DNA of 64,000 bases, taken from positions 22,145 to 86,144 of the forward strand of contig CAYXEO010000002.1 in the NCBI GenBank assembly GCA_964464055.1. Reading direction: 5' to 3'. The number at the start of each line of letters is the position of its first letter. The stretch's first letter is position 1. The translations under genes and the position numbers were made by a program. The stretch is from an uncultured Methanosarcinales archaeon (GTDB lineage Archaea > Nanobdellota > Nanobdellia > Woesearchaeales > GW2011-AR9). Positions 15,054-46,159 of this stretch are shown here, one piece after another. The notes under the pieces were generated by a model. The model had not been told where the DNA came from, made no database searches, and was given only the letters and a program-made list of their open reading frames with translations.

Positions 15054-15587
15054 ATGGGAAAAACAAATGTGCCACCAATGACCATTCGTTATGATGGTTT
15101 GTTCGATTTTGATGGGCTTTACGCCGCGATAATAGATTGGGCTAAAAATTATAATTTCCGGTGGCATGAACCGACTTATAAACATAAAGTGCCTTCTAAA
15201 AGTGGTGCTGAACAAGAATATAAGTGGGTAATGGATTTGAAAGTAACAGATTATATATTTTATGAGATTGAGTTAGAAGTTCACGTTTGGGATTTGAAAG
15301 AAATTGAAGTAAAAGATAAAGGAAAAACAAAAACACTTTCTAATGCTCACCTTTACATTAACATGTCTGGGAAAGTTGTATCCAATTGGCAAAATAAATT
15401 TAAAGGAAAAAAGATTTTTGGCCAAGACATGGGTGGTATGTATGAGAAATTTGTTGGAGTAGGAAAAGTTGAAGAACATTTTGATTTGTTATATTATCGG
15501 ATGATAAATTTACAAGCACTAATTAAGACCTTTTTTAATTTGGAAGCGAAAGGTCATGCTTACAAGGATTATTTGAAAGAGAATTAG
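15054..15587 (+). CDS. hypothetical protein, paralogous to the ORF at 34454..35053
   Basis: 177 aa. The N-terminus TIRYDGLFDFDGLYAAIIDWAKNYNFRWHE is collinear with TIKYKDIFDMKAFYESLHEWFLEHDWGDLE of the second copy. No known domain was recognised. Confidence 0.5.
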   Translation: MGKTNVPPMTIRYDGLFDFDGLYAAIIDWAKNYNFRWHEPTYKHKVPSKSGAEQEYKWVMDLKVTDYIFYEIELEVHVWDLKEIEVKDKGKTKTLSNAHLYINMSGKVVSNWQNKFKGKKIFGQDMGGMYEKFVGVGKVEEHFDLLYYRMINLQALIKTFFNLEAKGHAYKDYLKEN

Positions 15588-18428: not shown

Positions 18429-18842
18429 ATGGTTACGTTTCAATATATCCCATTTCAAGAAATTGAAAATTTATCTTCTGCAAAGAGGGTGCACAAATTA
18501 TTAAATATTGTTAAAGAAAATAAGATTGTTTTAATGGAAGGTCGGTTAAAAAAGCAAGAGGAAGCTGATTTGATTGAAATTACCATGGAAGAAATTTCTA
18601 ACAAATTTAAAGGGATTGAGTTAAGTGTTATTTACCCTAACAAAGATAAACAAGACGCTATGCAAAAAATGAAAGGTGTATTTGCTAACGTCATTTTGGG
18701 AGATCGACAAGGGATGACTATTGTTGGACCTGCTTCTGTAGTAAAACGAATTGAACAAAACCCTGATAAAATCGAATTATTTACTAACGAAAATGGTAAA
18801 AAGAAACCAACTAGGAAACGTTCCAAGAGAAGGAAGAAATAG
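18429..18842 (+). CDS. hypothetical protein (GTPase-associated; DUF2073-like by gene context) with a basic KR tail
   Basis: 137-aa ORF 76 nt downstream of the GTPase, ending in a PTRKRSKRRKK tail. Family assignment is from remembered archaeal gene neighbourhoods, not from motifs. Confidence 0.45.
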   Translation: MVTFQYIPFQEIENLSSAKRVHKLLNIVKENKIVLMEGRLKKQEEADLIEITMEEISNKFKGIELSVIYPNKDKQDAMQKMKGVFANVILGDRQGMTIVGPASVVKRIEQNPDKIELFTNENGKKKPTRKRSKRRKK

Positions 18843-18901
18843 GTCTTTTTATTTTTTTAAGAATAGAAACTATTAAATAATACCTTGACTTTACATTTAC
18901 C

Positions 18902-19294
18902 ATGCCACACCAATGCGTTCGATGTAACACGCTCTATCCTGATGGAGCGCAAGAAATTCTTAAAGGATGTAGTTGTGGTGCTCGTTTATTCTTTTATATT
19001 AAGAAAAAGAAGTTGGAAGAAAGTAAGAAAATAATTGAAGAACTTACTGACGACGAAAAGAAACATATTGAACAAGATGTAACCGAAATTTTGCACGTTA
19101 AACAAGAGCAAGATAGTCCCGTTGTTTTAGATATTGAATCTGTTAACATGCTTAGATCCGGACAATATGAATTAGATTTAGTAAAACTGTTCAAGAAAGA
19201 CCCCTTAGTGTTCAAGTTAGAAGAAGGCAAGTACGTCATCGATCTTCCACAGGTATTTAAAGAAGAACGTGAGAAGGAACAAAAAAATAATTAG
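18902..19294 (+). CDS. Zn-ribbon protein (C4) with an acidic coiled-coil tail
   Basis: The N-terminus CVRCNTLYPDG...CSCGARLF forms a C-x2-C...C-x-C zinc ribbon. This is the third gene of the GTPase module. Confidence 0.5.
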   Translation: MPHQCVRCNTLYPDGAQEILKGCSCGARLFFYIKKKKLEESKKIIEELTDDEKKHIEQDVTEILHVKQEQDSPVVLDIESVNMLRSGQYELDLVKLFKKDPLVFKLEEGKYVIDLPQVFKEEREKEQKNN

Positions 19295-22715: not shown

Positions 22716-22970
22716 ACGCTGGAAAAAGAGAAGTTGCTTTAAAAAGATTTTGTTTTGTCATAAGTGAATTGTTGGCAACATAAAGTATTATTTCTTTTGT
22801 CCAAACTTTAATATATCTCTTAAAAAAACATAAAAAGTTAGATTGAAAAAGAGATATGTGCTTTAATTTTCAATAAAACATCCCTATCTAACTATTTATG
22901 TTCGTTTTGTACTCTTTTTGGAAACAAAACCTTTTTAAAAGAGCGAACTTCTTTTTATTCTAGTTGCATG

Positions 22971-23097
22971 GCGATGTAGCTTAACCTGGTCATAGCGCCA
23001 CGCTCATAAACATGAGCTATGAGACATTTTCGTCGATGACAAAAATTGGCTTATTGGGTTACGTGGAGGTTGGGGGCTCAAATCCCCCCATCGCCAT
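22971..23097 (+). tRNA. tRNA-Met/Ile2 (anticodon CAT) with a ~52-nt intron after position 37
   Basis: Acceptor GGCGATG/CATCGCC with discriminator A. Anticodon stem CCACG/CGTGG with loop CTCATAA. T-arm GGGGG-CTCAAAT-CCCCC. Intron ~23010-23061 pairs ATGAG with the loop CTCAT (relaxed BHB). Confidence 0.8.
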
Positions 23098-23187
23098 ACT
23101 TTTTCACGTCAATGTAGTACCGAAGTATAAATTCAAAAACAAATTTTATATTTGTCTGTCACTTATGATTTTCGTGAATAACTATTG

Positions 23188-23271
23188 CCAACGTGGCACA
23201 ATCTGGTACTGCGCAAGCCTGGAAAGCTTGTTTCCTTTTGGATATCCCGGTTCAAATCCGGGCGTTGGCGC
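23188..23271 (+). tRNA. tRNA-Ser (anticodon GGA), long variable arm, no intron
   Basis: Acceptor GCCAACG/CGTTGGC with discriminator G. Anticodon stem CAAGC/GCTTG with loop CTGGAAA. Variable arm TCC-TTTT-GGA. T-arm CCCGG-TTCAAAT-CCGGG. Confidence 0.85.
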
Positions 23272-23334
23272 TCTTTTTTTCTTAATTTTTAATCAGAGGG
23301 TTGATAAGGGCAGACTGCCCTTATGTGAGGAGCC

Positions 23335-23356
23335 CGGGCGTTGGCGCTTTTTTTCA
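23335..23356 (+). repeat. duplicate of the tRNA-Ser 3' end (ccgggcgttggcgct plus T-run), 61 nt downstream of the gene
   Basis: An exact 15-nt copy of 23259-23273 followed by a T7 run. It is preceded by the hairpin GGGCAGACTGCCC. Confidence 0.7.
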
Positions 23357-23454
23357 TTTAATATTTAATTAGAAAATATTTGGTGTTATTACTTTTTTCC
23401 TCCTCCTTATAAACAACACTTTTATATATCATAAAAGTTTCTTTTTATTTGTAA

Positions 23455-26400
23455 ATGTATTATAAAAAGAAAGGTGAATTAGTTAGTTTAGTAATTATTA
23501 CGTTTTTAATTTTGGTAAGTGGTATTTTGTTCTGGCAACATGATAGTATTAGTGGTGCAATAACTATAATAAATCCCTCATTGGAATTAGAACCACAAAC
23601 CGTTAATGGCACTTTTGGAACAGGGATTGGTTTAGATGCTGAAGAATTAGTTACTGAAATTAATCATGTTGGCCTTGCTTTGGTTGAAGATGATGGTGAA
23701 GATGATTTTAGTACACAAAATATTGGCGATGGGCTTTTTACCGGAGTGATTAATTTGTCTAATGCAGATGCACAATTTAATGGTGTTTTTGCAAGCGATA
23801 ATGCCGGTAATGCAATAACTTTTGCCGATTTAAATAATGATGGTTTTGCAGATTTTGTAATTGGTGCTACCGGTGCAACCGCTAATGGTAATTCTGCAGC
23901 AGGAAAAGTTTATGTGGTTTATGGCCCGGCAAACGAAGAATTAAATTTGTCTGACGCAGATATTGTTTTGAACGGTGTTGCTGAAGATGTTCAAGCGGGG
24001 AATGCTTTATCTTCAGGAGATTTTAATAATGATGGTATTGATGATTTGTTAATTGGTGCGGAGAGTGCCAATACCGCAAACAAGGGAGAGTCCTATATTA
24101 TTTTTGGTTCATTAAGTTTGGCACAAGAAATTAATTTGTCTGATGCAAATGTGACTTTTGAAGGGATAGATCACCAAGATAGATCTGGGTCTGCCGTGTC
24201 TTCAGGAGACATTAATTGTGATGGTATCGAAGACATTTTAATAGGTGCACCTTATGCAACGGGTGGTGCATCTTATTCAGGTGAAATGTATGTTGTCTAT
24301 GGGTCTTCAATTTTGTCTGGGACAATTGATTTGGTAGATGCAAATGTGACTTTTTTTTCAGATTCTTCATCTGGTTTTTTAACAAATAGAAGAGGAATTA
24401 CAACTGGAGACATGAATAATGACGGGTTTGATGACATTTATGTTGTTGGAACGAATAATAATGGTGATGGGTATTTTATTTATAATAATTGTTCTTTAAG
24501 TTCTTCTATCAATTTAACTGTTGATGTTAATTTTACCATGGGTGGAGTTGGTGAACGAGCAATAGTTATGGGTGATATAAATAATGATGGGTATTTGGAT
24601 TTGATTGGTGGAGATTATGAATTTAATAATGGTACGGTCAATATTTTTTTAGGTTCTGCTGATTTAAGCGGTTCAAAATATTTATCGCAAGACAATATTA
24701 CCATCGAAGGATTAAATTCAGAACAGTTTGGTTATGATGTTGCAGTAGGAGATTATAATGGTGATGATATTATTGATTTATTCGTAAGTGCAAATTATGA
24801 AGATACTAATGGTAACATTGATTCGGGAGCATTACACATTTTTTATGGACCTATTGTTAATGGTACAAACATTTATTCTAATCAGTCAAATGTTACTTTT
24901 AATGGTGTTTCTGCAAGTGATTATGCAGGGGCACTAATTGTTAATGATTTTAACAACGATAATTCCGCAGACATTTTAATTGGTGCTTATTGTGCAGACC
25001 CAAATGGGAATTCGCAAGCAGGGGAAGTTTATTTAGTAAATGGATTGATCACATGTAATTATATCAATTTCAACACTACACTTAATCAAGACATCTCTGC
25101 TAATGGTGAATGTTTCATTATTAATGCATCCAACATTTACCTTGACGGAAACGGGCATATTATAACCGGAAATGGGTCAGGTGTGGGGATCAATTTAACC
25201 AATGTGGAAAATGTTACTATTCGGAATTTTAATGTACTAAATTTTAGTGAGGGGATTTATTTTGACAATTCTGCTAATAACAATAATTTCACAGATGGTG
25301 TTGTGGGCGATAATGCTAATTTAGATATTAACATTACTAACAATGGTGGTTCAAACAACATTTTTGCTAATGTTACTTTTGATAAAACAAGTACTTCAAT
25401 TGGAACTAGTAGTTCTATTTTTGTCAAATGGTATACTGATGTTTACATTAATGATACTTCTGGAAACCCATTGGTTTCAGTTAATGTTACTGGTTATAAT
25501 TTAACTAATGATTTGGAACAAAGTCAATCAACAGATGTAAATGGGGAGGCAAGATTATCTTTGATAGAATATTATCAAGATAATTCTGGTAAAACTTATC
25601 ACACAAATCATACTATTAACGTAAGTAAATCTCTTTATAGTCAAAGTTCACAACAAATAAATTTAACAGAAACTAATAATACGCAATTGACTTACACTTT
25701 AGAAGTGGGTTGCGGCGAGATTGGCGAAGACATTACTTTTTCTCCAACAACATTTAATATTAACGGTTCTTGTTTTACTATTGGTGCGGATAACCTTGTA
25801 ATTGATGGTGCTGGATTAACTATACTTGGTAACACTTCCGGAGCAGGTATTAACATAACCGGGTACAACAATATTACATTTACTAACTTTGATATTCAAA
25901 ATTTTAGTAATGGTATTTATCTTGGTGCAACAAACAATACTTATTTTTATAATTCTGAAATCGGTGCGTCCCATATTAAAGACGTTTTTGTAAATGATAA
26001 CGCAGGCGTCAATAATACTTTTGTTAATGTCACTTTTGACAGAGATAAAACACAGATTGGAACAGACAGTGACATTTTTGTTAAATGGTATGTTGACATT
26101 TTAGTGATGAATAATGGTTTTATAGTTTCTGATGCAAATGTTTCTGCATACAATTCTTCCACAGAATTAGAAGTTAGTCAACTGACAAATGCAACTGGAC
26201 AAATTCAATTCACTTTATTAGATTTCACTGAAACTAGTACCGGGAAAATTCACTCCACCCCCCATAATATAACTGTAAATAAAACTGGCTATAATTTACA
26301 AAGTTGGGAAGTTAATTTGACACAAACAAATAGCACCTTTCATCAATTTGATATTTCTGGTGATTTATCTTGTGGCACAATAAGTTCAAGTATCCTTTTA

Positions 26401-29400
26401 CAAAACCAAACCATTTATCAAAATGGTACTTGCTTTACTATTGGGGCAGATAATATTATTATTCACGGAGGCGGCACCACTTTAATTGGTAACGGAACAG
26501 GAAATGGTTTTCATTTTGCTGAGAGAACTAATGTAACTTTAACAAATTTTAATATTGTCAATTTTTCAAACGGTCTTTATTCTAATGGATCTGACGATTG
26601 TACGTTTAGTTCTTTAACTTTTAACAATAATAGCGTAGCAATGAATTGGTACAATTCTTCAAGTAATAATTTTGAGAATGGAACTATAACAAATAGTACA
26701 GAATTCGATTTAACTTTAGCTGTTGGAACAGACAATTATTTCACTAATATTACTTTTAATAACACTCATTTAAATATTTCAGAAGACGGTCATTTTACCA
26801 CTAGGTGGTTTTTGGATTTTGAAGTAACAGATGTTTCAGACGCAGTTTTAGAAGATGTGAAAATAACTTTGTTTAATGCTGAAAATGAAACTGTTGATGT
26901 GGTGACATCTTCTGCCACAGGAATTGCACAAATGATAATTTCTGAATTTTTCATTGATGAATTAGGTTACATTTATTTGCCGCCTTACCATTTGACAATC
27001 TCAAAAGCTGGTTATATCCCTGAAACTTACTCTCCTCTTGACATTTATGAAGAAAACCAAGAATTAGATTTTTCTTTAACAGAAATTTCTTGTGGGACAA
27101 CTTTAACAACAGACATTGTTTTAACGGAAAATCTTCAATCTTCTGGTACTTGTTTTGTTATTGGTGCGGATAATTTAACAATTGATGGTGCTGGTTATTC
27201 AATTAATGGTACTCTTTCAAATGACGGTATTCGTTCTATTGATCACACTGGTTTAACAATTACAAATTTGACTATAACGAATATGGGGCAAGGAATTAAT
27301 TTGGTCGGAACTAATACGAGTACTGTAAGAGATGTTAATTGTTCGGGTAATGATTATGGGTTAATATTAATTAATTCGTCAGATAATGCTATTTATGATT
27401 CTTTATTTTCAAACAATAATCATAATGATATTTATGTTAATAGTGAATTAGAAACTAACAATTTCTTAATTAATGATTCTTTTGCTCCTGCTGAAATAAA
27501 TGTCACCGGTAATGCAAATATTTTTCAAAAATGGTATTTAGAAGTAAATGTTGTTTTTGGAGATGAAGATTACAATTTACCTTTAGCAAATGTAACTGCT
27601 TATTTTAATTCAACAGGGTTGACAGATGAAAGTAGATTAACTAATACTAATGGCTTAGTCAATTTGGAAATAACAGAAACAAAAATAAATTCTTCGACCA
27701 CAACCTATTTTCCACCACATAATTTAACTGTTTTTTATAATCATTCTGCTATTGGGCAAGTGTCAAATTCAACAGTAATCAATATCTCAGAAACTAATAA
27801 TACTGAAGTAGAATTATGGCTAGATATAACTTGTACGCCTCCAGCAGACAATTTAGAAATAACTTCTAATACTAATCTTTGCCCAGGTGTTTGGGAACTT
27901 GTGGATGGTGGTAGTTACGGGGTAATTAAGATCGCATCTACCGCTAATGTAACCTGTATAGATACAGTTTTAGTTGGTGATGGTTCAGGGCGTGCATTTG
28001 TGGTTAGAAATGCAGAGGATGTCCAGATAAATGGGTGTACCTTACAAGATTATTTAATAGGTGTATCTCCAGATAATATGGAAATTAATGGGTTAGTGGT
28101 TAATGATATTAGTATGTCAAATGTGGATATTGGTATTTCAACAAGTAATTTAGGTGAATCATTTACTCTTTCAAATTTTGCAATTGAATTAACTGAGAGT
28201 GGTTATGGTGTTGGTTCTCAGTTAGATACTGATTCAAATCATTTAATTGAAAATGGTACGTTCTCTGGCGGTGAAAAAGGTATCTTTTTTAGTGGTGGAA
28301 CGTGGAACAACGCACGAATACATAATGTTACTTTTATAGGCCAGGGGAAAACTGGATACGGAATTTACAAGGGAAAAGGTTCAAATAACAATATTACTAA
28401 TTGTACATTCCAAGATTATCGATATGGTGTTTATTGGTATTCCGGAAGTAATAACAACATTTATTACAACACTTTTGAAGATGTTCGAGAATATAATGTT
28501 TGGTCAGTAAGTTCTGGTAATGTATTTAACACTTCTGTAAATATAACGTATGTGAACGAGTCAGGGAATTTAACAAATGCAACTGTTGCATGGGGGAATT
28601 CGTGGGATGACTATTGTGAGTTAGATTTAGAAGATACTAATAACGATGATTATGCAGATAGTGGAGATGATTACCCTTATAGTCCATCAACCACTGATAA
28701 AGTTTTAGGTTATGTGACTGATTGGGGTCCTAAGGTTTTATCTTGTCCGTCCGAAACTCCCGAAGAAGCAAGAGAAGTAAGAGGGAGTAGCGGTTCTAAA
28801 GCAGAAACCACAGAAACCACTGAAGAAATACCAACAGAAACACCAGCGAAACAACCAACACTTAAAAAAGAAACACAAGTAGGACTAACTCCTGACGAAA
28901 TTTATTTGGCAGAAGATGTAAAAAAACATCTTAAAACAGAAGCAACTACTACAACTACTGAACAAGGAACAACCCTTTTAGTAACTTTAGAAAATACTGG
29001 TACAAAATCTATGCAACTGTTCCCAGAAATTTTCCAAGAAATTGACGACCCCTATTTTATTGTTACCAAGAAGACCTTGGGACATGAGAACTCCTTTTTT
29101 AGTAAACTTTCGCACCTTTCTTATTCCGAAAACTCTGTCGCTGGAAGATTATTGGAAGCAACCATAACTAACCCTGAACAAATCCTTCTTGCACCAGGGG
29201 AAACTGTCGAGAAAACGTTACAAATCAACGAAGGTCTGGCAATCCCTAGACAATTAAAAATCCAATTTACAACTTTCGGTGAAACCGTTTATGAGAAAGA
29301 AATTGAAATTGAACAGAAAGCACTTTCAGGTACTGCGGTTGATTTGGATGTTGAAAATAATTTGTTAGACATTTATGCAGTTATTGTCCCTGCCCAAATT

Positions 29401-29784
29401 TCACAACAGTTCGAAGAATATTATGCTAAACAAACAAATAAATTAACAGGTGCGGCAGTTTATGACAAGTTACAAAATCGTAATGAATACAAACTAGAGT
29501 TAAGTTTAGTAAAAATCGTCCCAGATGAAAATAAACCGTCTCAGAACAATTTACCCGGTAAATATCAATTAATTCAAAAAATTGCTAAATCCTTTTCACA
29601 AGAGAAACCTAATTTTAATGATTTATATGGGCCTTACTTTATTAAAAAAGATCAAAGTTTGATTTTTGCTCAGCAACTGAAATATAATCCAGCGACTTAC
29701 AATAGTGATTATTTAATTAAAACTAAAATTTTCTTGGATGATACCCCAATAGTAGAGAATGAATTCGAGATTGAGATGAAGTAG
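23455..29784 (+). CDS. giant extracellular protein (2109 aa): FG-GAP/integrin-alpha-like repeats plus right-handed parallel beta-helix repeats, heavily N-glycosylated
   Basis: N-terminal signal anchor. Seven or more FG-GAP-like DxNxDGxxD loops (DFNNDGIDDLLIGA, GDINCDGIEDILIGAP, GDMNNDGFDDIYVVG...). Repeated IxGxGxTIxG...NxxNITFTNFxI beta-helix units with dense NxT sequons. Confidence 0.8.
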   Translation: MYYKKKGELVSLVIITFLILVSGILFWQHDSISGAITIINPSLELEPQTVNGTFGTGIGLDAEELVTEINHVGLALVEDDGEDDFSTQNIGDGLFTGVINLSNADAQFNGVFASDNAGNAITFADLNNDGFADFVIGATGATANGNSAAGKVYVVYGPANEELNLSDADIVLNGVAEDVQAGNALSSGDFNNDGIDDLLIGAESANTANKGESYIIFGSLSLAQEINLSDANVTFEGIDHQDRSGSAVSSGDINCDGIEDILIGAPYATGGASYSGEMYVVYGSSILSGTIDLVDANVTFFSDSSSGFLTNRRGITTGDMNNDGFDDIYVVGTNNNGDGYFIYNNCSLSSSINLTVDVNFTMGGVGERAIVMGDINNDGYLDLIGGDYEFNNGTVNIFLGSADLSGSKYLSQDNITIEGLNSEQFGYDVAVGDYNGDDIIDLFVSANYEDTNGNIDSGALHIFYGPIVNGTNIYSNQSNVTFNGVSASDYAGALIVNDFNNDNSADILIGAYCADPNGNSQAGEVYLVNGLITCNYINFNTTLNQDISANGECFIINASNIYLDGNGHIITGNGSGVGINLTNVENVTIRNFNVLNFSEGIYFDNSANNNNFTDGVVGDNANLDINITNNGGSNNIFANVTFDKTSTSIGTSSSIFVKWYTDVYINDTSGNPLVSVNVTGYNLTNDLEQSQSTDVNGEARLSLIEYYQDNSGKTYHTNHTINVSKSLYSQSSQQINLTETNNTQLTYTLEVGCGEIGEDITFSPTTFNINGSCFTIGADNLVIDGAGLTILGNTSGAGINITGYNNITFTNFDIQNFSNGIYLGATNNTYFYNSEIGASHIKDVFVNDNAGVNNTFVNVTFDRDKTQIGTDSDIFVKWYVDILVMNNGFIVSDANVSAYNSSTELEVSQLTNATGQIQFTLLDFTETSTGKIHSTPHNITVNKTGYNLQSWEVNLTQTNSTFHQFDISGDLSCGTISSSILLQNQTIYQNGTCFTIGADNIIIHGGGTTLIGNGTGNGFHFAERTNVTLTNFNIVNFSNGLYSNGSDDCTFSSLTFNNNSVAMNWYNSSSNNFENGTITNSTEFDLTLAVGTDNYFTNITFNNTHLNISEDGHFTTRWFLDFEVTDVSDAVLEDVKITLFNAENETVDVVTSSATGIAQMIISEFFIDELGYIYLPPYHLTISKAGYIPETYSPLDIYEENQELDFSLTEISCGTTLTTDIVLTENLQSSGTCFVIGADNLTIDGAGYSINGTLSNDGIRSIDHTGLTITNLTITNMGQGINLVGTNTSTVRDVNCSGNDYGLILINSSDNAIYDSLFSNNNHNDIYVNSELETNNFLINDSFAPAEINVTGNANIFQKWYLEVNVVFGDEDYNLPLANVTAYFNSTGLTDESRLTNTNGLVNLEITETKINSSTTTYFPPHNLTVFYNHSAIGQVSNSTVINISETNNTEVELWLDITCTPPADNLEITSNTNLCPGVWELVDGGSYGVIKIASTANVTCIDTVLVGDGSGRAFVVRNAEDVQINGCTLQDYLIGVSPDNMEINGLVVNDISMSNVDIGISTSNLGESFTLSNFAIELTESGYGVGSQLDTDSNHLIENGTFSGGEKGIFFSGGTWNNARIHNVTFIGQGKTGYGIYKGKGSNNNITNCTFQDYRYGVYWYSGSNNNIYYNTFEDVREYNVWSVSSGNVFNTSVNITYVNESGNLTNATVAWGNSWDDYCELDLEDTNNDDYADSGDDYPYSPSTTDKVLGYVTDWGPKVLSCPSETPEEAREVRGSSGSKAETTETTEEIPTETPAKQPTLKKETQVGLTPDEIYLAEDVKKHLKTEATTTTTEQGTTLLVTLENTGTKSMQLFPEIFQEIDDPYFIVTKKTLGHENSFFSKLSHLSYSENSVAGRLLEATITNPEQILLAPGETVEKTLQINEGLAIPRQLKIQFTTFGETVYEKEIEIEQKALSGTAVDLDVENNLLDIYAVIVPAQISQQFEEYYAKQTNKLTGAAVYDKLQNRNEYKLELSLVKIVPDENKPSQNNLPGKYQLIQKIAKSFSQEKPNFNDLYGPYFIKKDQSLIFAQQLKYNPATYNSDYLIKTKIFLDDTPIVENEFEIEMK

Positions 29785-30962: not shown

Positions 30963-31314
30963 AATCTTTACAAAAGATTATCATTCAAAGATGTGCGGGA
31001 TGCGCGTTTCTTACCCCCACGAGAGTGTATAACTTTGATTTGATATCTTATATCCTCCTAATTATTAATTCACCTATATTTGTATATCTGTGCGTAACTT
31101 ACCTTTAAAAACGGGGTTTGTTTATATAGTTTGTGCCTAGTTTTGTCCGTAAATTATATAAAAGAATCAAGAATCCATTAGAAACATGAGTTCCGTAAGA
31201 AAGCGTGGAAGTTAGAACATTACTTTTTCTAGATCAATTTAGTTAGTAAGTTGTTACAAAATATAACTACAAAATTAAATAATTTAAAAAATACATCGTC
31301 GAGGTTATAAAAAA

Positions 31315-32265
31315 ATGCAAATAGTAAAAGATTTTCAATGGAAAAAAGATATTACAGTTAAAGAATTGGTTGAAGGATACCAAAACATTGGGTATCAAAG
31401 TATCGAACTAGCCAAAGCATCAGAAGTTATTGTCAAAATGAAGAAAGATTCTGCCAAAATATTTTTGACATTCACATCAAACATGGTCACATCAGGGTTA
31501 CGGGGCTTTTTTGCCCAACTAATTAAATTGGGTATCCCAACCGCGATAGTAACCACCGTTGGTGGGATTGAAGAAGACATCATGAAAGCGAAGGGGGAAT
31601 CATTTAAAATTGGCAAATTTGAAGCTGACGATGTAGAATTGCATGAGCAAGGTGTAAACAGAGTTGGGAACTTGTTCATCAACAACGAAGCGTACATGAA
31701 CTTTGAAGATTATATAAATCCGATTCTGGATAAACTGTACCAGAAACAAAAACGGTGGGCAGTATCAGATTTGTTACGAGAAATAGGATTAATGGTTGAT
31801 GACGAAAACTCCATTCTTTCTCAGGCAGCAAAAAAAGATGTACCAATTTTCTGTCCGGCGATCACCGATGGTGCATTTGGGTTCCATTTGTATTTGTTCC
31901 AACAGAAACATCGTGACTTTATTGTTGATGTGGTACAAGATTTTGGGAACATACTTTTTACCACAACCCACGATGATAAGAAAGGAGTCATTGCACTTGG
32001 AGGTTCAATCAGTAAACATCACGCAATCCTCTGCACATTACTTAATGGCGGGGCAGAATATGCTGTTTATATGACTACTGCACATAAAACTTCTGGCTCA
32101 ATGTCGGGGGCAACAACTAATGAAGCAAAATCGTGGGGGAAAGTCAAAGATGATTCTGATATCGCTACCGTAATTGGTGATGTTACAATCATGTTTCCAT
32201 TAATGATGATAAAAGCTTTGGAAGAACTAGATTCTGAGGGTCTTTTAGAGGGTGAACATGAATAA
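31315..32265 (+). CDS. dhs: deoxyhypusine synthase
   Basis: 316 aa with the characteristic DHS NAD/spermidine-site motif ...GGS.SKHHAILC... and an overall collinear match. It is the first gene of a three-gene operon. Confidence 0.85.
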   Translation: MQIVKDFQWKKDITVKELVEGYQNIGYQSIELAKASEVIVKMKKDSAKIFLTFTSNMVTSGLRGFFAQLIKLGIPTAIVTTVGGIEEDIMKAKGESFKIGKFEADDVELHEQGVNRVGNLFINNEAYMNFEDYINPILDKLYQKQKRWAVSDLLREIGLMVDDENSILSQAAKKDVPIFCPAITDGAFGFHLYLFQQKHRDFIVDVVQDFGNILFTTTHDDKKGVIALGGSISKHHAILCTLLNGGAEYAVYMTTAHKTSGSMSGATTNEAKSWGKVKDDSDIATVIGDVTIMFPLMMIKALEELDSEGLLEGEHE

Positions 32266-33334
32266 AATTAAACCAAAATTTATACTTTCTAAAAGTAAAG
32301 TACTTGAACAGTATCAAAAATTAGTTCCTTTCGCAGACCAGATTTCTTACAGTTCTAAAACAAACCCTTTAGTTACTAAAATTTTAGAAAAAGAAACCAA
32401 ATGCTTTTTTAGCATCCACTTTGTTAATGAACTAAAACATGTCCAAGATAAATCACGAATAGTTTTTCTTGCCCAAGCATGGGATGAAGAAGAAATCAAG
32501 TCACTTTTGGATCAACAAATTCATCATTTTATTGTTGATAACGAATCTGATTTAGATATTTTATTAAATTATCTTTCATCTAATGAAATAAAACAAAAAG
32601 TAACACTCTTTTTACGGATTAAATTGAAAGAAAACACTTTACGTACAGAAAAATATTTTGTTTTTGGGATGAGTTCCAAGATAATTAATTCAAAAATTGA
32701 ACAGATATCCATGAATAAAAACATTAAAAATAAAATTGCTCAATTAGGAGTACATTTTCATCGAAAAACACAAAATATGAGTGAATGGAATTTACAGTAT
32801 GAAATTGAACAGATGTTATCATCATTATCTTTAAGAAATCTTAATTTGATTAATATAGGTGGTGGTTTACCTTCTGTTTATGCTAACACTAATGCAAAAG
32901 TGTTACCAGGAATTTTCAACAAGATCACTGAACTAAAACAGTGGCTTAATGATCAAGAAATCAAGTTGGTAATTGAACCGGGAAGATTTATTGCTGCTCC
33001 TGCAGGCAAACTTGTCACTAGAATAGTGGGGATACATCAACAAAATATTGTTGTTAACGCTTCTGTATACAATAGTGACATGGACGCTTTAATTGTACCT
33101 GTTAAATTGTTAGTGGAAGGAGAATTTAGTCAAGCCGAGGAGAAAGAAAACGAAACGATTCTACCATTTGTTGTCAAAGGTATTACTCCTTGTTCGATGG
33201 ACTTGTTCCGTTATCGGGTTTATCTCAAAAACCCACAAATCGGGCAAGAATTAGTTTTTCTTAATGCTGGTGCCTATGGTTTCTCAACAAACTTTTGTGA
33301 TTTGGACACTTTAGAGATGGAGTTAATAGAGTAA
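32252..33334 (+). CDS. PLP-dependent fold-III (alanine-racemase-like) basic-amino-acid decarboxylase (arginine/ornithine-type)
   Basis: ISYSSKTNP (PLP-Lys region), INIGGGLPSVY (GGG motif), VIEPGRFIAAPAG (EPGR motif), LNAGAYGFS (GAY motif). It overlaps the dhs stop by 14 nt. Confidence 0.75.
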   Translation: MNMNKIKPKFILSKSKVLEQYQKLVPFADQISYSSKTNPLVTKILEKETKCFFSIHFVNELKHVQDKSRIVFLAQAWDEEEIKSLLDQQIHHFIVDNESDLDILLNYLSSNEIKQKVTLFLRIKLKENTLRTEKYFVFGMSSKIINSKIEQISMNKNIKNKIAQLGVHFHRKTQNMSEWNLQYEIEQMLSSLSLRNLNLINIGGGLPSVYANTNAKVLPGIFNKITELKQWLNDQEIKLVIEPGRFIAAPAGKLVTRIVGIHQQNIVVNASVYNSDMDALIVPVKLLVEGEFSQAEEKENETILPFVVKGITPCSMDLFRYRVYLKNPQIGQELVFLNAGAYGFSTNFCDLDTLEMELIE

Positions 33335-33341
33335 ATAGAAA

Positions 33342-34232
33342 ATGGAACAAGATAAATTTCTTAACTGGATGAATTTACCACAGGAATATAGCGGAGAAGA
33401 AAGCAAATTTGTTATACTTCCAGTAGAGTACGAAAAAGAGGTTACTTTTGGTACAGGTGCCGCTCAAGGTTCGCAGGAAATTATTCGTGCTTCGGAACAT
33501 CTAGAGTATTACGATTGTCAATTTGATACTGAACCTTTTTTGGATGGTGTTAAGTTACTTGATCCCATTAAAACGGTTACATCTGAATCACAAAAACAAC
33601 ACACTCCACAAGAGATGGTCAATACTGTTTCTGCAACAGTTGCACAACAGACTGGAAACAGATTCGTTATTGGTTTAGGTGGTGATCATGCAGTAACAAT
33701 AGGATTAGTTAAAGGCCAAGAGCAGTTACATGAAGATTTCTCAGTAATCATCTTGGATGCACACGCAGATTTTCGTGACTCTTGGAATGGTTCGTCTCTT
33801 AACCATGCTTGTGTAGCTAAACAAGTAAGTAAAAAGCACGAAGTTGTAATTGTTGGTGTTCGTTCCATGGACATTGACGAAAAAAAGCAGATAGATTCTA
33901 GTTCAGATGTACATTTGTTATTAGCGCATGAATTTTCTCTAGACAAATTAAAACAACTTCTTCCAGAATTGAAGAAAAAAGTATATCTTTCCATCGATGT
34001 TGATGTATTAGACTCAAGTATTATCAGAAACACTGGAACTCCTGAACCTGCTGGACTAACTTGGAACCAAGTGGTAGACATTTTACAATTAGTATTTCAG
34101 GAGAAGCAAGTTATTGGCGCAGATTTGGTAGAGTTTTCTCCACAACAGAAAAGTGATTTTCAAGGCGAAGCGTATTCATTAGCGAAATTGGTTTACAAAA
34201 TCATGGCTTTACATAGAAAGATAAGTAAATAG
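33342..34232 (+). CDS. speB: agmatinase/arginase-family ureohydrolase
   Basis: GGDHAVTIG, ILDAHADF and SIDVDVLD Mn-binding motifs. It starts 7 nt after the decarboxylase gene. Confidence 0.8.
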   Translation: MEQDKFLNWMNLPQEYSGEESKFVILPVEYEKEVTFGTGAAQGSQEIIRASEHLEYYDCQFDTEPFLDGVKLLDPIKTVTSESQKQHTPQEMVNTVSATVAQQTGNRFVIGLGGDHAVTIGLVKGQEQLHEDFSVIILDAHADFRDSWNGSSLNHACVAKQVSKKHEVVIVGVRSMDIDEKKQIDSSSDVHLLLAHEFSLDKLKQLLPELKKKVYLSIDVDVLDSSIIRNTGTPEPAGLTWNQVVDILQLVFQEKQVIGADLVEFSPQQKSDFQGEAYSLAKLVYKIMALHRKISK

Positions 34233-34382
34233 TCTGGTTTTGATGTGAGCAATGTCGAGTTCGCTTTAAGTATGGTTTTAAAGGGATGTGGTTCCCTCCC
34301 ATAAGGAACAAAAACCCCCCTCCCACCATTAATGGTTAAAATGAGGGACGCTCACGAATTGACATAGTTCATTTACCAGGCT

Positions 34383-34408
34383 ACTTACTTACTTACTTAC
34401 TTACTTAC
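34383..34408. repeat. (CTTA)6 microsatellite
   Basis: ctacttacttacttacttacttacttacag, read directly. Confidence 0.85.
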
Positions 34409-34453
34409 AGAGAAAGTAAATATTTATATACTTCTTTTATTTATTTTTTTAAT

Positions 34454-35053
34454 ATGGCTCAGAAGTTAACAGTGGTTCCTGGTAATGGTGCATTTACAAT
34501 TAAGTACAAAGATATATTTGATATGAAGGCATTTTATGAATCTCTTCATGAATGGTTTCTAGAACATGATTGGGGCGATTTAGAAGATGGTAAAGATAAA
34601 TGGGAACGTCTTTATAGGGAAAGAGTAGCTCAAGGTGGTGCTAGAGAAATTTGGATTGAATGGCGACTTAAAAAACAGCCAGAGAATGTGCCTTTTATGT
34701 ATTATTTAAATCTTAGTTTTCATTGTGTGGCTTTGATGAACACAGAAATCATTAAGGATGGTGAGAAGTTAAAAGTCAATAAAGGTGAAGTAGAATTAGT
34801 AATTAAACCGCAATTAGAGTTGTCTTATGAAGATGCAATGTATAAGAATGATTTTTTAAAAAGGATAACTATATTGTTCCGTAATCGAATGTATAATAAT
34901 ATGATTGGTGAGCGGAAGAAAGAATTGTATCAAGAAGCATTCGTTCTAAACAATTTTATCAAACAATGGTTTAAATTAAAAAGATACTTACCGTACGAAG
35001 AAACCAAGAGTTTTTTCCCTTCTTCTGCGTGGCCGAGCCATTTGAAGGAGTAG
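34454..35053 (+). CDS. hypothetical protein, paralog of the ORF at 15054..15587
   Basis: 199 aa with the same N-terminal architecture (TI+Y..+FD...Y..+..W) and an aromatic/Trp-rich core. Confidence 0.5.
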   Translation: MAQKLTVVPGNGAFTIKYKDIFDMKAFYESLHEWFLEHDWGDLEDGKDKWERLYRERVAQGGAREIWIEWRLKKQPENVPFMYYLNLSFHCVALMNTEIIKDGEKLKVNKGEVELVIKPQLELSYEDAMYKNDFLKRITILFRNRMYNNMIGERKKELYQEAFVLNNFIKQWFKLKRYLPYEETKSFFPSSAWPSHLKE

Positions 35054-37029: not shown

Positions 37030-37143
37030 CGGGCCTGCGAAGATTTGAACTCCGGATCTACAGCTATCTTCAGAGTGATAAAAAATCATTTCTTTTTTCG
37101 CTCTTAGGAGGCTGTCGCCCTATCCAGGCTAGGCTACAGGCCC
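37030..37143 (-). tRNA. tRNA-Arg (anticodon CCT) with a ~39-nt intron after position 37
   Basis: Minus strand. Acceptor GGGCCTG/CAGGCCC with discriminator G. Anticodon stem ACAGC/GCTGT with loop CTCCTAA. T-arm CGGAG-TTCAAAT-CTTCG (one G.U). Intron ~37065-37103. Confidence 0.8.
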
Positions 37144-42442: not shown

Positions 42443-45400
42443 ATGAAAACTAAACACCACTTCAAAATTGTACTATTGTTCGTTTCACTTATCATATTTT
42501 TGAGCAGTTCTTTATTTTTTTTGGAAGATTTGTCAGTAACTGGTTATATCACTACGGATAACGGAAACCAAGAATCTGTGCGGTTAAGCACCGAGAAACT
42601 AGACACAGAATTAATTAAGGAAATTCAGTCCGGAAATTATCAACCGAAAATCGTTATCATCTTGGAAGACAATTCTGAAACACTCTCCGATGATTTGCAA
42701 GATAAACAAGAAGCTATTGCCGAGTTACAAGAAGAAGTAATGGAAGGGCTACAAGACGAAGATTTGGTGGTTTTAGAAGAAATAATTCAAGACACAGATG
42801 TTGCTGAGGAAGAACCAGAAGAGGATACTGACTTCACAATTACTCAAAAGTTTGATTCTCTTAATGCTATTGCTGGGGAAGTTCATGATGCAGATGCTTT
42901 GGTAGAGTTGAGTAACAATAAAAATGTTAAGAAGATATTGTTAGATTATCCTGTCAAATTCACTCTTGATACTAGTGTACCACAAATTAATGCCGATGAT
43001 GTTTGGGACATTTCTGTTTCTGGGACTAACATTACTGGTGCTGGTGAAACGGTTTGTGTGGTGGATACTGGGATAGATTATACTCACACTGCTTTAGGTG
43101 GTTGTAATCCTGTAACTTACGATTTGGATGGTGACATTGAAATTCTAAACACTTCAATTGAATCTGCCCATGACTATGCAAACAATTTTGATTACACTTG
43201 GAAAATTAACAAAACCAATTACACTAACATCGCGGTGCATTTTACTAACATCACTTTAGAAAACTTGCCAGAAAGTGGTGATACTACTGACCATATTTAT
43301 ATTTATGATCAAAACAATAATACCTTAGCGGTTTACAAAGAGTCTTTATCTGATGTTTGGACACCTTATGGTGAAGGTGATACTATTTATGTGCGATTGG
43401 TAACTGACGGTTCAGTAACAGATTATGGTTTCCTCATTGACAAAATAATTAATGGTACAACTAACACAACAATGAACTGGAACACTTGTTCTAAAGTCAT
43501 TGGTGGTTGGGATGTGCAAAACAACGATTGTGATCCAAAAGATGACCATAACCACGGAACTCATGTGGCAGGGATAATATCTTCTAGTGACTCAACTTAT
43601 CGCGGTGTTGCACCTGACGCAAAATTGGTAGCGATGAAAGTTCTTGATTCTAGTGGTGCAGGTTATTCTTCTGATGTGGCGGCAGGAATCGATTGGTGTA
43701 CAACAAATGCAGAACGATTAAACATTTCAGTTATTAGTTTGAGTTTAGGTTGTGATGGTGCAGGATGTACCCATTATCAAACTTATTGTAACGATGACTT
43801 GACCGCAACTGCGATCAACAATGCTTATGCAGAAAACATCTTAGTGGCAATCGCTGCAGGTAACGGTGGTTGGACAGATGGTATCTCTAGCCCATCTTGT
43901 GTACAAAATGCAACTCCTGTTGGAGGGTTTGATGCTTCTGGTAATCCAGTTTATAATCGAGGGGATTTACTTGAAATTTCTGCTCCTGCGACTTCTATCC
44001 ATTCTTCCATACTTTCTGGGATGTGGCAAGATTTGAGCGGAACTTCGATGGCCACCCCACATTTCTCTGGTTCAGTGGCACTTTTCAGACAATATTGGCG
44101 ATTAGTTTATGGGCAAACTCCTACAGTGGACGAAATAAATGATAAATTCATTTTGACTGGCTCAATCGTTGACGACACTTTTGGTTCTGGGCACAATTTT
44201 TCCGGTGTTGACATCTTGGCCGCTGTTAAACCTATTTTGAACGTCACTTCTCCGATAAACGGAACTTCTTTCGATGTAGATTGGGTTTTGGTAAATGTGA
44301 CTTCAGATGTGAATTTGTCTTCAGCAATTTTGGAACTAGATGGTGTAACTAATTATACCATGAACGAAAGTGGTGAGATAGACGGGACTACTTTTTATTA
44401 CAATTTAACCGGACTAACTTCTGGAACACACGAGTTCAATGTATTCGGTAACGATTCTGTGACAATTGGCGTTTCTGATTCTGTAAGTATAGAAATCGAT
44501 GCAGACTTGCCTGAAATAACTTTTGTCCTTCCAGCAGAAAACGGTATTTATTCAACTAACTTCAATTTGAACATTTCTTTAGAGAATACTTTACTTTCCA
44601 CTTCCTCATACAATATCACCAATTCCACTGATGACATTTTATCAAGCAACTCTACATCTGGAATCAACTCTTCCACATATACCTGGACAGAGCTAGTTAA
44701 TTTGACAGGTTGGGAAGAAGGAGTTTATACTTTATCCGTTTTTGTTAATGATACCAATGGATATTCTACACAGGACACTCTCAATTTCATAGTAGATAAA
44801 ACAGCTCCAACAATAAATTCTGTGGATGTTGTGCCTTTAGTGGTTTACAACAACGATACGGTAGTTTTCACTCTTAACGCTTCCGATAGTAACGATTTAG
44901 GCGACTCTTTATTTTCATCAAACTTCTCTGGCAGTTGGACAAATTATAGTATGACAAATTCTACTGCTTTGGGTGTAGCAAATGTTTTATACAACTACCC
45001 TCTCTCTGGGATAGAGAATCTAACTAACCAAGCGACAATTTATTATCTGTTTCATGCAGTTGATGCAGCTGGGAATGTGGTGAATTCCAGTGTCTATAAT
45101 TTCACTGTGTCTAACAGGAACTTGAGTTCAGCAGAAATATCTTCTCCTGATGATGGCGATACCGTTGGTGTTGATGTTTCTACTTCGTTTGAAGCAACTG
45201 CCGTAGATCCTGATGGTGATACTTTAACTTACACTTGGGATTTTGGCGACTTTTCTTCCAGCGGTTTAGGTCAAACAACATCTCACTCTTATGAAGAACT
45301 GGGGACTTATACTGTAACTTTAAATGTAACTGACTCTTATGGTTCGGATTTGCAAAATACTATTTCTGTAATTGTCGGTGACGTTTCTGGGCCAACAATG

Positions 45401-46159
45401 ACTTATTCCGCTATTCCTTCAACCCCTCATTTGGAAGACGACTCTGCAACTTTCACCATCTATTTCAATTTCACCGATTCTGCTAATGTGACTAATGTAT
45501 CTGGTTCAATTGAAACTGTGGAATTAGCTTCTAGTGGTTGTACTGGGTTAGGCGGCACCAGTGTAACTTGCAGTTGGGGATTAAGTTTTGACTCTTCTGA
45601 TAATGGTGACCATGATATTATTATGAATGCCACTGATGGTGATGGTAATTTTGTTTCTTCAACTTATGAAATAACTTTAGAATCTTGCTCTGATGATACT
45701 AAGAATGGCGAAGAGACCGGTACTGATTGTGGTGGTTCTTGTTCTGCTTGTTCTAGTGAAGATGATAGTGAAGAAGATTCGGTTAGTTCAAGTAGTTCTG
45801 GTGGTGGAGCTGGTGCAAGTGCAACTACAACAACAAGTGCAACGACCGATACTTCTGAGGTAATTGGTACTTTTGATGAAACAAGTGTTGAAGATGAAAT
45901 TGTGGTGGGAGATTCTATTAGTGAAGAAGTAATTCCTAGTAAATCTACTGGTGATATTTCTGTAACTGGTTCTGGTGTCAATGAAAGTTCTGTGACAGAA
46001 GATACTGGAAGTAAGAATTTGGTAGGTGCGGCATTTAGTTTCTTTAAAGGAATTGGTAGTAGTACAGAAAATATGAGGCAGAATGGTATTCTAATTATTG
46101 TTTTATCAATGTTAATACTTATTTTATTGATAACTTATTTTGTGTTTCTGAGAGAATGA
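42443..46159 (+). CDS. subtilisin-like serine protease (S8) with PKD and Ig-like domains and a C-terminal TM anchor
   Basis: Catalytic D (VVDTGID), H (HGTHVAG), S (GTSMATPH). PKD domain (TYTWDFGD...GTYTVTLNVTDSYG). Signal peptide. C-terminal TM ILIIVLSMLILILLITYFVF. Confidence 0.85.
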   Translation: MKTKHHFKIVLLFVSLIIFLSSSLFFLEDLSVTGYITTDNGNQESVRLSTEKLDTELIKEIQSGNYQPKIVIILEDNSETLSDDLQDKQEAIAELQEEVMEGLQDEDLVVLEEIIQDTDVAEEEPEEDTDFTITQKFDSLNAIAGEVHDADALVELSNNKNVKKILLDYPVKFTLDTSVPQINADDVWDISVSGTNITGAGETVCVVDTGIDYTHTALGGCNPVTYDLDGDIEILNTSIESAHDYANNFDYTWKINKTNYTNIAVHFTNITLENLPESGDTTDHIYIYDQNNNTLAVYKESLSDVWTPYGEGDTIYVRLVTDGSVTDYGFLIDKIINGTTNTTMNWNTCSKVIGGWDVQNNDCDPKDDHNHGTHVAGIISSSDSTYRGVAPDAKLVAMKVLDSSGAGYSSDVAAGIDWCTTNAERLNISVISLSLGCDGAGCTHYQTYCNDDLTATAINNAYAENILVAIAAGNGGWTDGISSPSCVQNATPVGGFDASGNPVYNRGDLLEISAPATSIHSSILSGMWQDLSGTSMATPHFSGSVALFRQYWRLVYGQTPTVDEINDKFILTGSIVDDTFGSGHNFSGVDILAAVKPILNVTSPINGTSFDVDWVLVNVTSDVNLSSAILELDGVTNYTMNESGEIDGTTFYYNLTGLTSGTHEFNVFGNDSVTIGVSDSVSIEIDADLPEITFVLPAENGIYSTNFNLNISLENTLLSTSSYNITNSTDDILSSNSTSGINSSTYTWTELVNLTGWEEGVYTLSVFVNDTNGYSTQDTLNFIVDKTAPTINSVDVVPLVVYNNDTVVFTLNASDSNDLGDSLFSSNFSGSWTNYSMTNSTALGVANVLYNYPLSGIENLTNQATIYYLFHAVDAAGNVVNSSVYNFTVSNRNLSSAEISSPDDGDTVGVDVSTSFEATAVDPDGDTLTYTWDFGDFSSSGLGQTTSHSYEELGTYTVTLNVTDSYGSDLQNTISVIVGDVSGPTMTYSAIPSTPHLEDDSATFTIYFNFTDSANVTNVSGSIETVELASSGCTGLGGTSVTCSWGLSFDSSDNGDHDIIMNATDGDGNFVSSTYEITLESCSDDTKNGEETGTDCGGSCSACSSEDDSEEDSVSSSSSGGGAGASATTTTSATTDTSEVIGTFDETSVEDEIVVGDSISEEVIPSKSTGDISVTGSGVNESSVTEDTGSKNLVGAAFSFFKGIGSSTENMRQNGILIIVLSMLILILLITYFVFLRE

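Follow-up and report, generated by a model that had tools for sequence, protein, structure and literature searches.

Gene clusters that combine an arginine decarboxylase (ADC), the deoxyhypusine synthase (DHS) homologue SpeY and the ureohydrolase SpeB are known from bacteria as diagmatine/caldomycin-type homospermidine clusters, and one such cluster, with a pyruvoyl ADC derived from SpeD, has been described in a Woesearchaeota metagenome-assembled genome (MAG) (PMC10407285, PMC13625781). Every bacterial SpeY protein tested converts agmatine to diguanidino-homospermidine (PMC13625781). In alpha-proteobacteria, alanine-racemase-fold (AR-fold) homologues of ornithine decarboxylase (ODC) that have turned into ADCs are encoded next to speY and speB (PMC13625781, PMC10981699); the TBLASTN survey dealt with bacterial ('eubacterial') genomes only (PMC13625781). 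Among archaea, the DHS of Thermococcus (T. kodakarensis) uses spermidine, and the model put forward for Haloferax volcanii requires ADC, takes agmatine as the DHS substrate and lets a ureohydrolase finish the modification (PMC5178350). The archaeal ADCs characterised as of 2021 comprise only pyruvoyl enzymes and one AAT-fold enzyme (PMC8503589). Here we describe a three-gene operon encoding a DHS homologue, a fold-III pyridoxal 5'-phosphate (PLP) decarboxylase and an agmatinase-family ureohydrolase. It lies in a 64-kb stretch (the window; 64,000 nucleotides of contig CAYXEO010000002.1) of a Woesearchaeales genome, and on balance we consider it probable that this operon, found in DPANN (Woesearchaeota-like) archaea, supplies and uses a four-carbon donor for the modification of the translation factor aIF5A without spermidine.

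The open reading frame (ORF) listing of the window gives three plus-strand frames, 31315 to 32265 (316 aa), 32252 to 33334 (360 aa, with a GTG start) and 33342 to 34232 (296 aa). The DHS stop codon TAA (32263–32265) ends 14 nt inside the GTG-started decarboxylase frame, and 7 nt (33335–33341) lie between the decarboxylase stop and the agmatinase ATG. In the homologue alignment, the N-terminus of the decarboxylase is placed about five residues further in than in the GTG-started frame, and an ATG at 32258 is found 3 nt past the sequence GAGGGTG (32248–32254). Because the homologues start later and GAGGGTG precedes the ATG, 32258 is the more likely start in preference to GTG 32252, predicting a protein of 358 aa and an 8-nt overlap with the DHS gene (ATGAATAA). 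The preliminary description of this DNA had recognized a single compact polyamine/hypusine operon of three overlapping or adjacent genes, and both the coordinates and the linkage, which is conserved in relatives, bear it out; its 14-nt overlap applies to the GTG start and shrinks to 8 nt with the preferred ATG, and its 7-nt gap before speB stands. The features are as follows.

31301 to 31305, plus strand: Shine-Dalgarno-like GAGGT, 9 nt 5' of the DHS ATG (sequence read)
31315 to 32265, plus strand: DHS homologue, 316 aa (Pfam DS, match to 7cmc, alignment to human DHS)
32258 to 33334, plus strand: fold-III PLP decarboxylase, 358 aa, or 360 aa from the alternative GTG at 32252 (Pfam, NCBIfam, motifs, AlphaFold and Foldseek)
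33342 to 34232, plus strand: agmatinase-family ureohydrolase, 296 aa (TIGR01230, Pfam Arginase, motifs, PDB match 3pzl)

The operon matches the ADC-SpeY-SpeB clusters in its three functions (decarboxylase, DHS homologue, agmatinase-family ureohydrolase), and as in a Sphingomonas locus (L083) an AR-fold decarboxylase adjoins the DHS homologue. Unlike in those clusters, the decarboxylase falls outside the ODC clade and is no homologue of SpeD, but belongs to a separate family approximately 21–24% identical to its named relatives. The likeness to Haloferax volcanii lies in the clustering of DHS with an agmatinase-like gene (Prunetti et al. 2016, PMC5178350); in haloarchaea, however, aIF5A belongs to the cluster and a pyruvoyl-dependent ADC is encoded apart from it, whereas here the ADC candidate is part of the operon and aIF5A is not.

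Relatives of the decarboxylase number in the thousands in metagenomes; the closest 120 (58–69% identical, about 345 aa long) come from Woesearchaeota or Nanoarchaeota MAGs and are named by their sources only 'decarboxylase' or 'ornithine decarboxylase'. When one genome per GTDB species was scanned, at least 159 species had a relative, and 80 loci were kept for neighbourhood analysis. By their record titles, these belong to Woesearchaeota, Nanoarchaeota/Nanoarchaeia, 'Iainarchaeum' and Micrarchaeota, and many are third-party annotation (TPA) MAGs titled 'uncultured Methanosarcinales archaeon'. The neighbourhood data consist of the 64-kb window and 13-kb related loci. A DHS gene (72–88% identical) is located directly upstream of the decarboxylase gene, on the same strand, in 78 of the 80 loci, and the remaining two have too little upstream DNA to show one. 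Since each locus represents another species-level genome, chance can hardly account for the arrangement; the same pair also occurs in a lineage further removed (P0121, 59% identity). Of the 74 informative loci, 41 have an arginase-family gene in the cluster, usually with a 4-nt overlap with the decarboxylase stop and twice upstream of DHS. On these frequencies (78/80 versus 41/74), DHS and the decarboxylase form the invariant core of the cluster, often joined by the ureohydrolase as a third member. In one locus (L076, 5992–7860, plus strand), a single 622-aa ORF carries Orn_Arg_deC_N (residues 49–243) followed by Arginase (363–619), i.e., a decarboxylase–ureohydrolase fusion; found in one MAG, it could be genuine or a frameshift or assembly artefact.

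The operons of some relatives are longer. About 20 of 78 related loci contain extra small co-directional ORFs (100–250 aa), 28 of them between DHS and decarboxylase and 15 between decarboxylase and ureohydrolase (for example, in L003:970–2189, L057:4090–6014, L080:3408–5990 and L024:7017–8391). Their stops and starts overlap, and they are a heterogeneous set, for the most part without annotation, in which tandem paralogues of 171–175 aa occur; the window has none of these ORFs.

The DHS homologue scores 331.5 bits against the Pfam family DS (PF01916; cut-off 27, 5.5e-99), and its best PDB match is the DHS of P. horikoshii (7cmc, 2e-62). It falls slightly under the NCBIfam cut-offs (336.6 versus 350 bits for PRK01221, and 291.4 versus 304.25 bits for TIGR00321). 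Residues were mapped by an ungapped alignment to human DHS, and conservation was counted over a set of 72 DHS genes, all full-length, drawn from the related loci. Like the canonical enzymes (human, T. kodakarensis and P. horikoshii), the window DHS has the DHS fold, the NAD site, the catalytic residues and the residues that dock eIF5A. The catalytic Lys276 (human Lys329), together with His235 (His288), Trp274 (Trp327) and Glu270 (Glu323), is kept, each in 72 of 72 relatives, and Glu136/Glu137 and Tyr305 (human numbering) are likewise kept in the window protein.

The departure from the canonical enzymes lies at the three positions that hold the donor. In human DHS, Asp243 and Asn292 bind the N10 atom of spermidine and Asp316 binds N1 (PMC7226451), and the D243A mutant loses both spermidine dehydrogenation and hypusination (PMC10042821). 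Instead of Asp/Asn/Asp, or the Asp/Asn/Leu of Pyrococcus DHS, the window protein has Phe190 (codon 31882–31884), Leu239 (32029–32031) and Met263 (32101–32103). The relatives agree, with Phe and Leu in 72 of 72 each, and Met, Val or Leu (64, 7 and 1 sequences) at the third position. This pattern bears on the most conventional explanation of the operon, in which an ADC makes agmatine, agmatinase converts it to putrescine, a spermidine synthase is encoded elsewhere, and DHS, like that of eukaryotes and Thermococcus, takes spermidine as its donor. That the protein is overall closest to archaeal DHS (by the PRK01221 score and the match to 7cmc) and that the ureohydrolase passes the agmatinase equivalog cut-off would both suit such a route, as would the fusion in L076 if it channelled agmatine directly to putrescine. 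Because all three spermidine-anchoring positions are hydrophobic, throughout the 72 relatives and in the face of an inactive human D243A enzyme, the route nonetheless fits poorly. In addition, speE, speD and pdaD are absent among the window ORFs scanned, and the DHS–decarboxylase pair is kept where no agmatinase is nearby. We regard the spermidine route as fairly unlikely. Of the two uses of agmatine offered by the preliminary description, conversion through putrescine and spermidine thus loses ground and direct use by DHS is better supported.

Precedents for a pocket of this kind come from agmatine-coupling enzymes. T. thermophilus CdmS, which homocouples agmatine, has a pocket that differs from that of human DHS mainly by Phe204 and Leu286 at Asp243 and Asp316 (PMC10981699), and the window DHS shares the Phe at the former and an aliphatic residue at the latter (Phe190 and Met263). 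Two SpeY-like proteins, from Sphingomonas (L083, next to a type-III PLP enzyme) and Trichormus (L082), have Phe/Val/Cys and Phe/Val/Leu at Asp243/Asn292/Asp316. Spermidine-using DHS of the Thermococcales type, by contrast, retains the Asp/Asn pair. Outside the pocket, the window DHS differs from SpeY. The residues that dock the eIF5A loop, Asn173, Tyr176 and Leu295, are kept as Asn124, Tyr127 and Leu242 (in 64, 72 and 72 of the 72 relatives, respectively), whereas the SpeY-like proteins have Glu/Leu/Glu at these positions, and Asn and Gln at His288 and Tyr305. Alanine mutants of human Asn173, Tyr176 and Leu295 abolish hypusination (PMC10042821). Because the docking residues are retained and the spermidine anchors are hydrophobic as in SpeY and CdmS, the window DHS is predicted to combine an aIF5A-docking surface with an agmatine-type donor pocket.

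The same comparison allows us to weigh a SpeY-type homospermidine pathway with no role for aIF5A, in which the DHS homologue would couple two agmatines, the ureohydrolase would turn the product into homospermidine, and aIF5A would either stay unmodified or be the target of a different enzyme. The bacterial enzymes set this precedent, as SpeY proteins all give diguanidino-homospermidine, from which their partner ureohydrolases make homospermidine (PMC13625781); in its pocket triad the window DHS matches SpeY and CdmS; and the Woesearchaeota speDA-speY-speB cluster has been interpreted in this way (PMC10407285). Yet the window DHS keeps the residues that the SpeY-like proteins lost (Asn173/Tyr176/Leu295, His288, Tyr305 and Glu136/Glu137), and scores 137.2 bits against the SpeY model, far below its cut-off of 500. 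Its host is an archaeon with aIF5A, as seen in relatives: two related loci (L018 and L065) encode aIF5A with the loop SRPGKHGHAKV (GKHGHAK) and its target lysine. No second DHS homologue was found in the 64-kb window or in the 80 related loci. A homospermidine pathway separate from aIF5A is in our judgement unlikely, and a role of the operon in aIF5A modification remains our preferred reading.

Hydrophobic donor pockets are not limited to this family. Among 150 representatives surveyed across the DHS superfamily, several hydrophobic-pocket classes (LGL, MIL, TWL, LQL and others) occur beside the canonical DND class, and some of these genes are found in ADC/ureohydrolase clusters (L084, L087 and P0121).

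Two further observations concern DHS homologues in other contexts. The plasmid pHV3 of Haloferax volcanii carries a second DHS homologue (L081:3935–4909) with the triad Asn/Met/Leu, which adjoins an amino-acid racemase and a DoxX gene and not polyamine genes; approximately 19 haloarchaeal megaplasmids carry such a second homologue. Directly 3' of DHS genes with LGL or LAL pockets, on three unrelated contigs, are small (173–190 aa) multi-pass membrane proteins with no Pfam match (L085:5937–6458, L087:6323–6853 and L088:5930–6502), which match each other by BLAST at 1e-11 to 4e-5. This family might be a transporter or a further component of the pathway.

The second protein of the operon matches PF02784 (Orn_Arg_deC_N) with 59.5 bits against a cut-off of 23.4 (4e-16), and its C-terminal sheet domain gives 19.8 bits against PF00278, below the cut-off of 23. 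With residues counted from GTG 32252, the motifs comprise the PLP lysine Lys36 (YSSKTN), His168 and His170 (HFHRKTQN), the glycines 203–205 (GGG), Glu242-Pro-Gly-Arg245, Cys314-Ser315-Met-Asp317 and Tyr342 (NAGAY). All of the fold-III catalytic motifs are invariant across 80 decarboxylase sequences, which have 70 invariant columns, and Asp317 is invariant as well. The AlphaFold (AF2) model, with a predicted local distance difference test (pLDDT) score of 81.4 and a predicted template modelling (pTM) score of 0.79, has the barrel and sheet domains as expected. The Pfam match, the motifs, and the model with its Foldseek neighbours uphold the earlier statement that this is an AR-fold decarboxylase and not the pyruvoyl ADC that archaea usually have. 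Like ODC, lysine/ornithine decarboxylase (L/ODC), the ADC of PBCV-1, SpeA, diaminopimelate decarboxylase (DAPDC) and carboxy(nor)spermidine decarboxylase (CANSDC), it has the two-domain fold and all catalytic motifs; unlike any of them, it is short (about 345 aa in the family) and its specificity-helix and Cys-loop residues differ from all.

Its nearest characterised neighbour depends on the method. Hidden Markov model searches rank DAPDC first, with family-profile scores against the PDB of 62–48 bits for DAPDCs, 49 for V. vulnificus L/ODC, 42 for the chlorella-virus ADC, 34–29 for ODCs and at most 25 for CANSDC, whereas Foldseek with the AF2 model puts L/ODC, ODC and the viral ADC first (E of approximately 1e-18 to L/ODC and ODC). 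The best PDB sequence match is the DAPDC 2p3e (1.5e-14). Curated models fall far short of their cut-offs (89.1 versus 297.9 bits for TIGR01048, lysA; 38.2 versus 409 for TIGR01047, nspC; and 28 versus 700 for DokD), and the named relatives at 21–24% identity amount to four weak plasmid matches and the Sphingomonas enzyme. Because the sequence and structure rankings disagree, we read the decarboxylase as a distinct DPANN family that appears roughly equidistant from DAPDC, ODC, ADC and CANSDC, and as a member of no curated subfamily; this placement relies on the curated cut-offs, on diagnostic residues and on gene context.

In fold-III decarboxylases, a 3-10 'specificity helix', together with the loop around the catalytic Cys, determines specificity; in DAPDC an arginine (Arg343 in M. 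jannaschii) binds the distal carboxylate, and in the enzymes for basic amino acids two Asp residues, one in the helix and one beside the Cys, take its place (PMC7857480). In HMMER alignments, which are remote and make the mapping tentative, an invariant Val282-Pro283 falls at both the DAPDC Arg column and the DD column of L/ODC (2plj). The markers of ODC and L/ODC, the helix Asp (Asp332 of the Tb enzyme, Asp314 of the Vv enzyme) and the Cys-adjacent Asp361, are thus replaced by Val282-Pro283 and Ser315. Four residues before Val282 is an invariant Asp278, which in a separate remote alignment is matched to an Asp of the SpeY-linked ODC-like enzyme of Sphingomonas. Tentatively, given the remoteness of these alignments and the poor modelling of segment 274–283, Asp278 and Asp317 may be available for a cationic side chain.

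A function in lysine biosynthesis, as DAPDC, or as CANSDC, can be judged from the same data. The best sequence matches are indeed DAPDCs (TIGR01048 and 2p3e above), but the profile scores of DAPDC, L/ODC and ADC lie within approximately 20 bits of each other, the curated DAPDC and nspC cut-offs are far out of reach, the column of the carboxylate-binding Arg (M. jannaschii Arg343, PMC7857480) is an invariant Val282, and the gene is always linked to DHS and not to lysine or CASDH genes. Either assignment is extremely improbable. A grouping with DAPDC, which the preliminary description had named as fatal to a polyamine role, was therefore not seen, and its suggestion that carboxy(nor)spermidine might be the substrate finds no support, given the nspC score and the lack of a CASDH gene nearby.

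A second alternative assigns ornithine (or lysine) as the substrate, with putrescine handed to DHS as the donor in the manner of a homospermidine synthase and the ureohydrolase as an accessory. The Foldseek ranking of L/ODC and ODC, the label ornithine decarboxylase given to family members by JGI, and the 33 of 74 loci with no ureohydrolase nearby can be read in this way. Set against them, many of the clusters contain the ureohydrolase, which is once fused to the decarboxylase, and the distal amine of putrescine would still need the Asp243/Asn292 anchor, which is gone. Moreover, in relatives the operon contains both an AdoMet_dc-type decarboxylase and an Arginase gene, as two of the nearest DHS relatives outside the family show. 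The order in one of them (L084) is DS, a 196-aa ORF, AdoMet_dc and Arginase; in another (L087:5001–6326, plus strand), a 441-aa AdoMet_dc and DS fusion with a Leu/Gly/Leu pocket triad is followed by a 176-aa membrane-protein ORF and then by Arginase. In the 80-sequence alignment, no decarboxylase column separates loci with from loci without an adjacent ureohydrolase, as ADC and ODC subtypes might; since no column tracks the presence of the ureohydrolase, the family probably has a single specificity. Ornithine or lysine decarboxylation is, on this evidence, very unlikely.

L-arginine decarboxylation is the most likely activity, judged from the ureohydrolase as neighbour or fusion partner and from the fact that an unrelated AdoMet_dc-type decarboxylase fills the same operon context, a pattern of non-orthologous displacement. 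A SpeD homologue from the Woesearchaeota speDA-speY-speB cluster has been assayed and is a specific arginine decarboxylase (PMC10407285).

The third protein scores above the agmatinase cut-off of TIGR01230 (184.9 versus 174.3 bits), matches the Pfam Arginase family at 9.6e-52, and has as its best PDB match the agmatine ureohydrolase of T. volcanium (3pzl, 2.7e-27). The arginase-family metal motifs are complete (GGDH at 113–116, DAHAD at 139–143 and SIDVDVLD at 217–224), with all six Mn ligands present (His116, Asp139, His141, Asp143, Asp219 and Asp221). Other models are well below their cut-offs (63 versus 229 bits for hutG and 94 versus 228 bits for arginase); the protein is of the agmatinase type and not of the formiminoglutamase type, as had been proposed. 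Its substrate may be agmatine, diguanidino-homospermidine, or a guanidinobutyl-lysine on aIF5A.

Starting from the gene order and its conservation, the intact catalytic motifs of the three proteins, the lost spermidine anchors and the kept eIF5A-docking residues, all of which are seen directly, we propose a pathway in which every substrate is a prediction. First, the fold-III PLP enzyme would convert L-arginine to agmatine. Second, as the pocket residues suggest, DHS with NAD would oxidise the primary amine of agmatine and hold the 4-guanidinobutyl group as an imine on Lys276; the acceptor could be the conserved lysine of aIF5A or, as in bacterial SpeY, a second agmatine, yielding diguanidino-homospermidine. 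Third, the ureohydrolase would remove urea, producing deoxyhypusine on aIF5A directly (model d of PMC5178350), or else would release urea from diguanidino-homospermidine to give homospermidine, which would then serve as an aminobutyl donor. A more specific, polyamine-free version is conceivable, though less likely than not: DHS would attach the 4-guanidinobutyl group directly from agmatine to the lysine of aIF5A, the ureohydrolase would act on the protein-bound intermediate to leave deoxyhypusine, a new AR-fold ADC family would supply the agmatine, and the arrangement would be an ancestral-looking, agmatine-dependent form of hypusination from which bacterial SpeY derived. The preliminary description, which was right on the operon, the AR fold and the agmatinase type, contained neither the altered DHS pocket nor the invariant DHS–decarboxylase core.

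Several points weigh against a spermidine-independent pathway of this kind. The one archaeal DHS assayed in vitro for agmatine dependence, that of Haloferax, was inactive with every donor (PMC5178350), and the description of the CdmS pocket is an AlphaFold docking model and not a crystal structure (PMC10981699). DHS proteins with hydrophobic pockets exist without polyamine-gene neighbours (P0123, P0134, P0136 and P0144). The substrate of the decarboxylase is not readable from its sequence, as Ser315 follows the catalytic Cys and Val282 sits in the usual helix-Asp column, and the specificity-helix segment 274–283 is modelled with a pLDDT below 50. No ureohydrolase is encoded within approximately 6 kb in 33 of 74 loci; agmatine deiminase and N-carbamoylputrescine amidohydrolase, sought downstream in these loci, were not found there, the neighbours being DisA-like, DHH, radical-SAM or unannotated genes. 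Neither a motif search for aIF5A nor Pfam scans covering another 30 ORFs detected aIF5A, speE, speD, pdaD or tiaS in the 64 kb of the window, and the negatives for spermidine synthase, S-adenosylmethionine decarboxylase (AdoMetDC) and a second DHS cover the window and the 13-kb loci only.

We found no published account of the DPANN decarboxylase family or of a hybrid archaeal DHS. We rate the operon as a variant of the known ADC-SpeY-SpeB cluster type, in which the decarboxylase family and the hybrid DHS are what is new. The locus defines a new fold-III decarboxylase subfamily present in at least 159 species-level genomes and, if the decarboxylase is an ADC, would add a further enzyme type for archaeal agmatine synthesis. 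Archaea also need agmatine for agmatidine in tRNA-Ile. How archaea without spermidine make (deoxy)hypusine on aIF5A has been a question since the 2016 Haloferax work, for which the operon offers a concrete and widely conserved candidate. It bears equally on the agmatine-dependent archaeal DHS, proposed earlier and never demonstrated; the coexistence in archaea of agmatine-dependent and spermidine-dependent DHS enzymes is an explicit question of the 2026 study of bacterial SpeY (PMC13625781). In genome annotation, the Asp243/Asn292/Asp316 triad could serve as an easy sequence marker for sorting DHS homologues, and as all three proteins are small and soluble-looking, the hypothesis is directly testable.

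Turning to the DNA around the genes, we infer that GAGGT at 31301–31305 could be the ribosome-binding signal of the DHS gene, and the A/T-rich stretch 31259–31292 (AAATATAAC...AATTTAAAAAAT) is a possible candidate for an archaeal TATA region. Scans for sigma-70 promoters and terminators gave results no better than shuffled sequences, the sigma-70 model not being applicable to archaea. At the gathering threshold, Rfam identified three tRNAs in the window and no match in the intergenic regions flanking the operon. The divergent spacer between the genes for L11 and DHS contains a G+C-rich patch (approximately 30990–31040) with no Rfam match, and the intergenic region 3' of the agmatinase gene (34233–34453) contains another (approximately 34290–34350) together with a (CTTA)n microsatellite (approximately 34382–34409). 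The next ORF (34454–35053, plus strand, 199 aa) has no Pfam or NCBIfam match, and its sole homologue in the related loci (L072, 37% identity) is located away from the operon there; it is probably unrelated to the pathway. A paralogous relationship between this ORF and that at 15054–15587 was rejected, as BLAST detected no similarity.

The window has approximately 33% G+C and is archaeal in content, with an archaeal-type L11 upstream of the operon, S6e, FtsZ, SepF, OapB/OapC and intron-containing tRNAs. Adjacent genes for the origin-associated proteins OapB (PF09846, 7e-18) and OapC (PF09845, 6e-26) occupy 18429–19294 (plus strand), near which a replication origin may lie. The tRNA-Ser at 23187–23271 is the only tRNA called by both Rfam and ARAGORN; two long tRNAs called by Rfam, 22970–23096 (plus strand, 127 nt) and 37030–37143 (minus strand, 114 nt), were missed by ARAGORN and presumably contain introns. 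The ORF 23012–23368 overlaps tRNAs and is probably spurious. Two large plus-strand ORFs, 23455–29784 (2109 aa, with FG-GAP-like and repeated NxT-rich modules) and 42443–46159 (1238 aa), have N-terminal signal or transmembrane segments and probably encode surface or adhesion proteins typical of DPANN cells. Lastly, 15852–16610 (plus strand) encodes a member of the TP_methylase family (PF00590, 8e-19), whose N-terminal sequence resembles, as we presume, that of diphthine synthase; if so, it would be another translation-factor modification enzyme.

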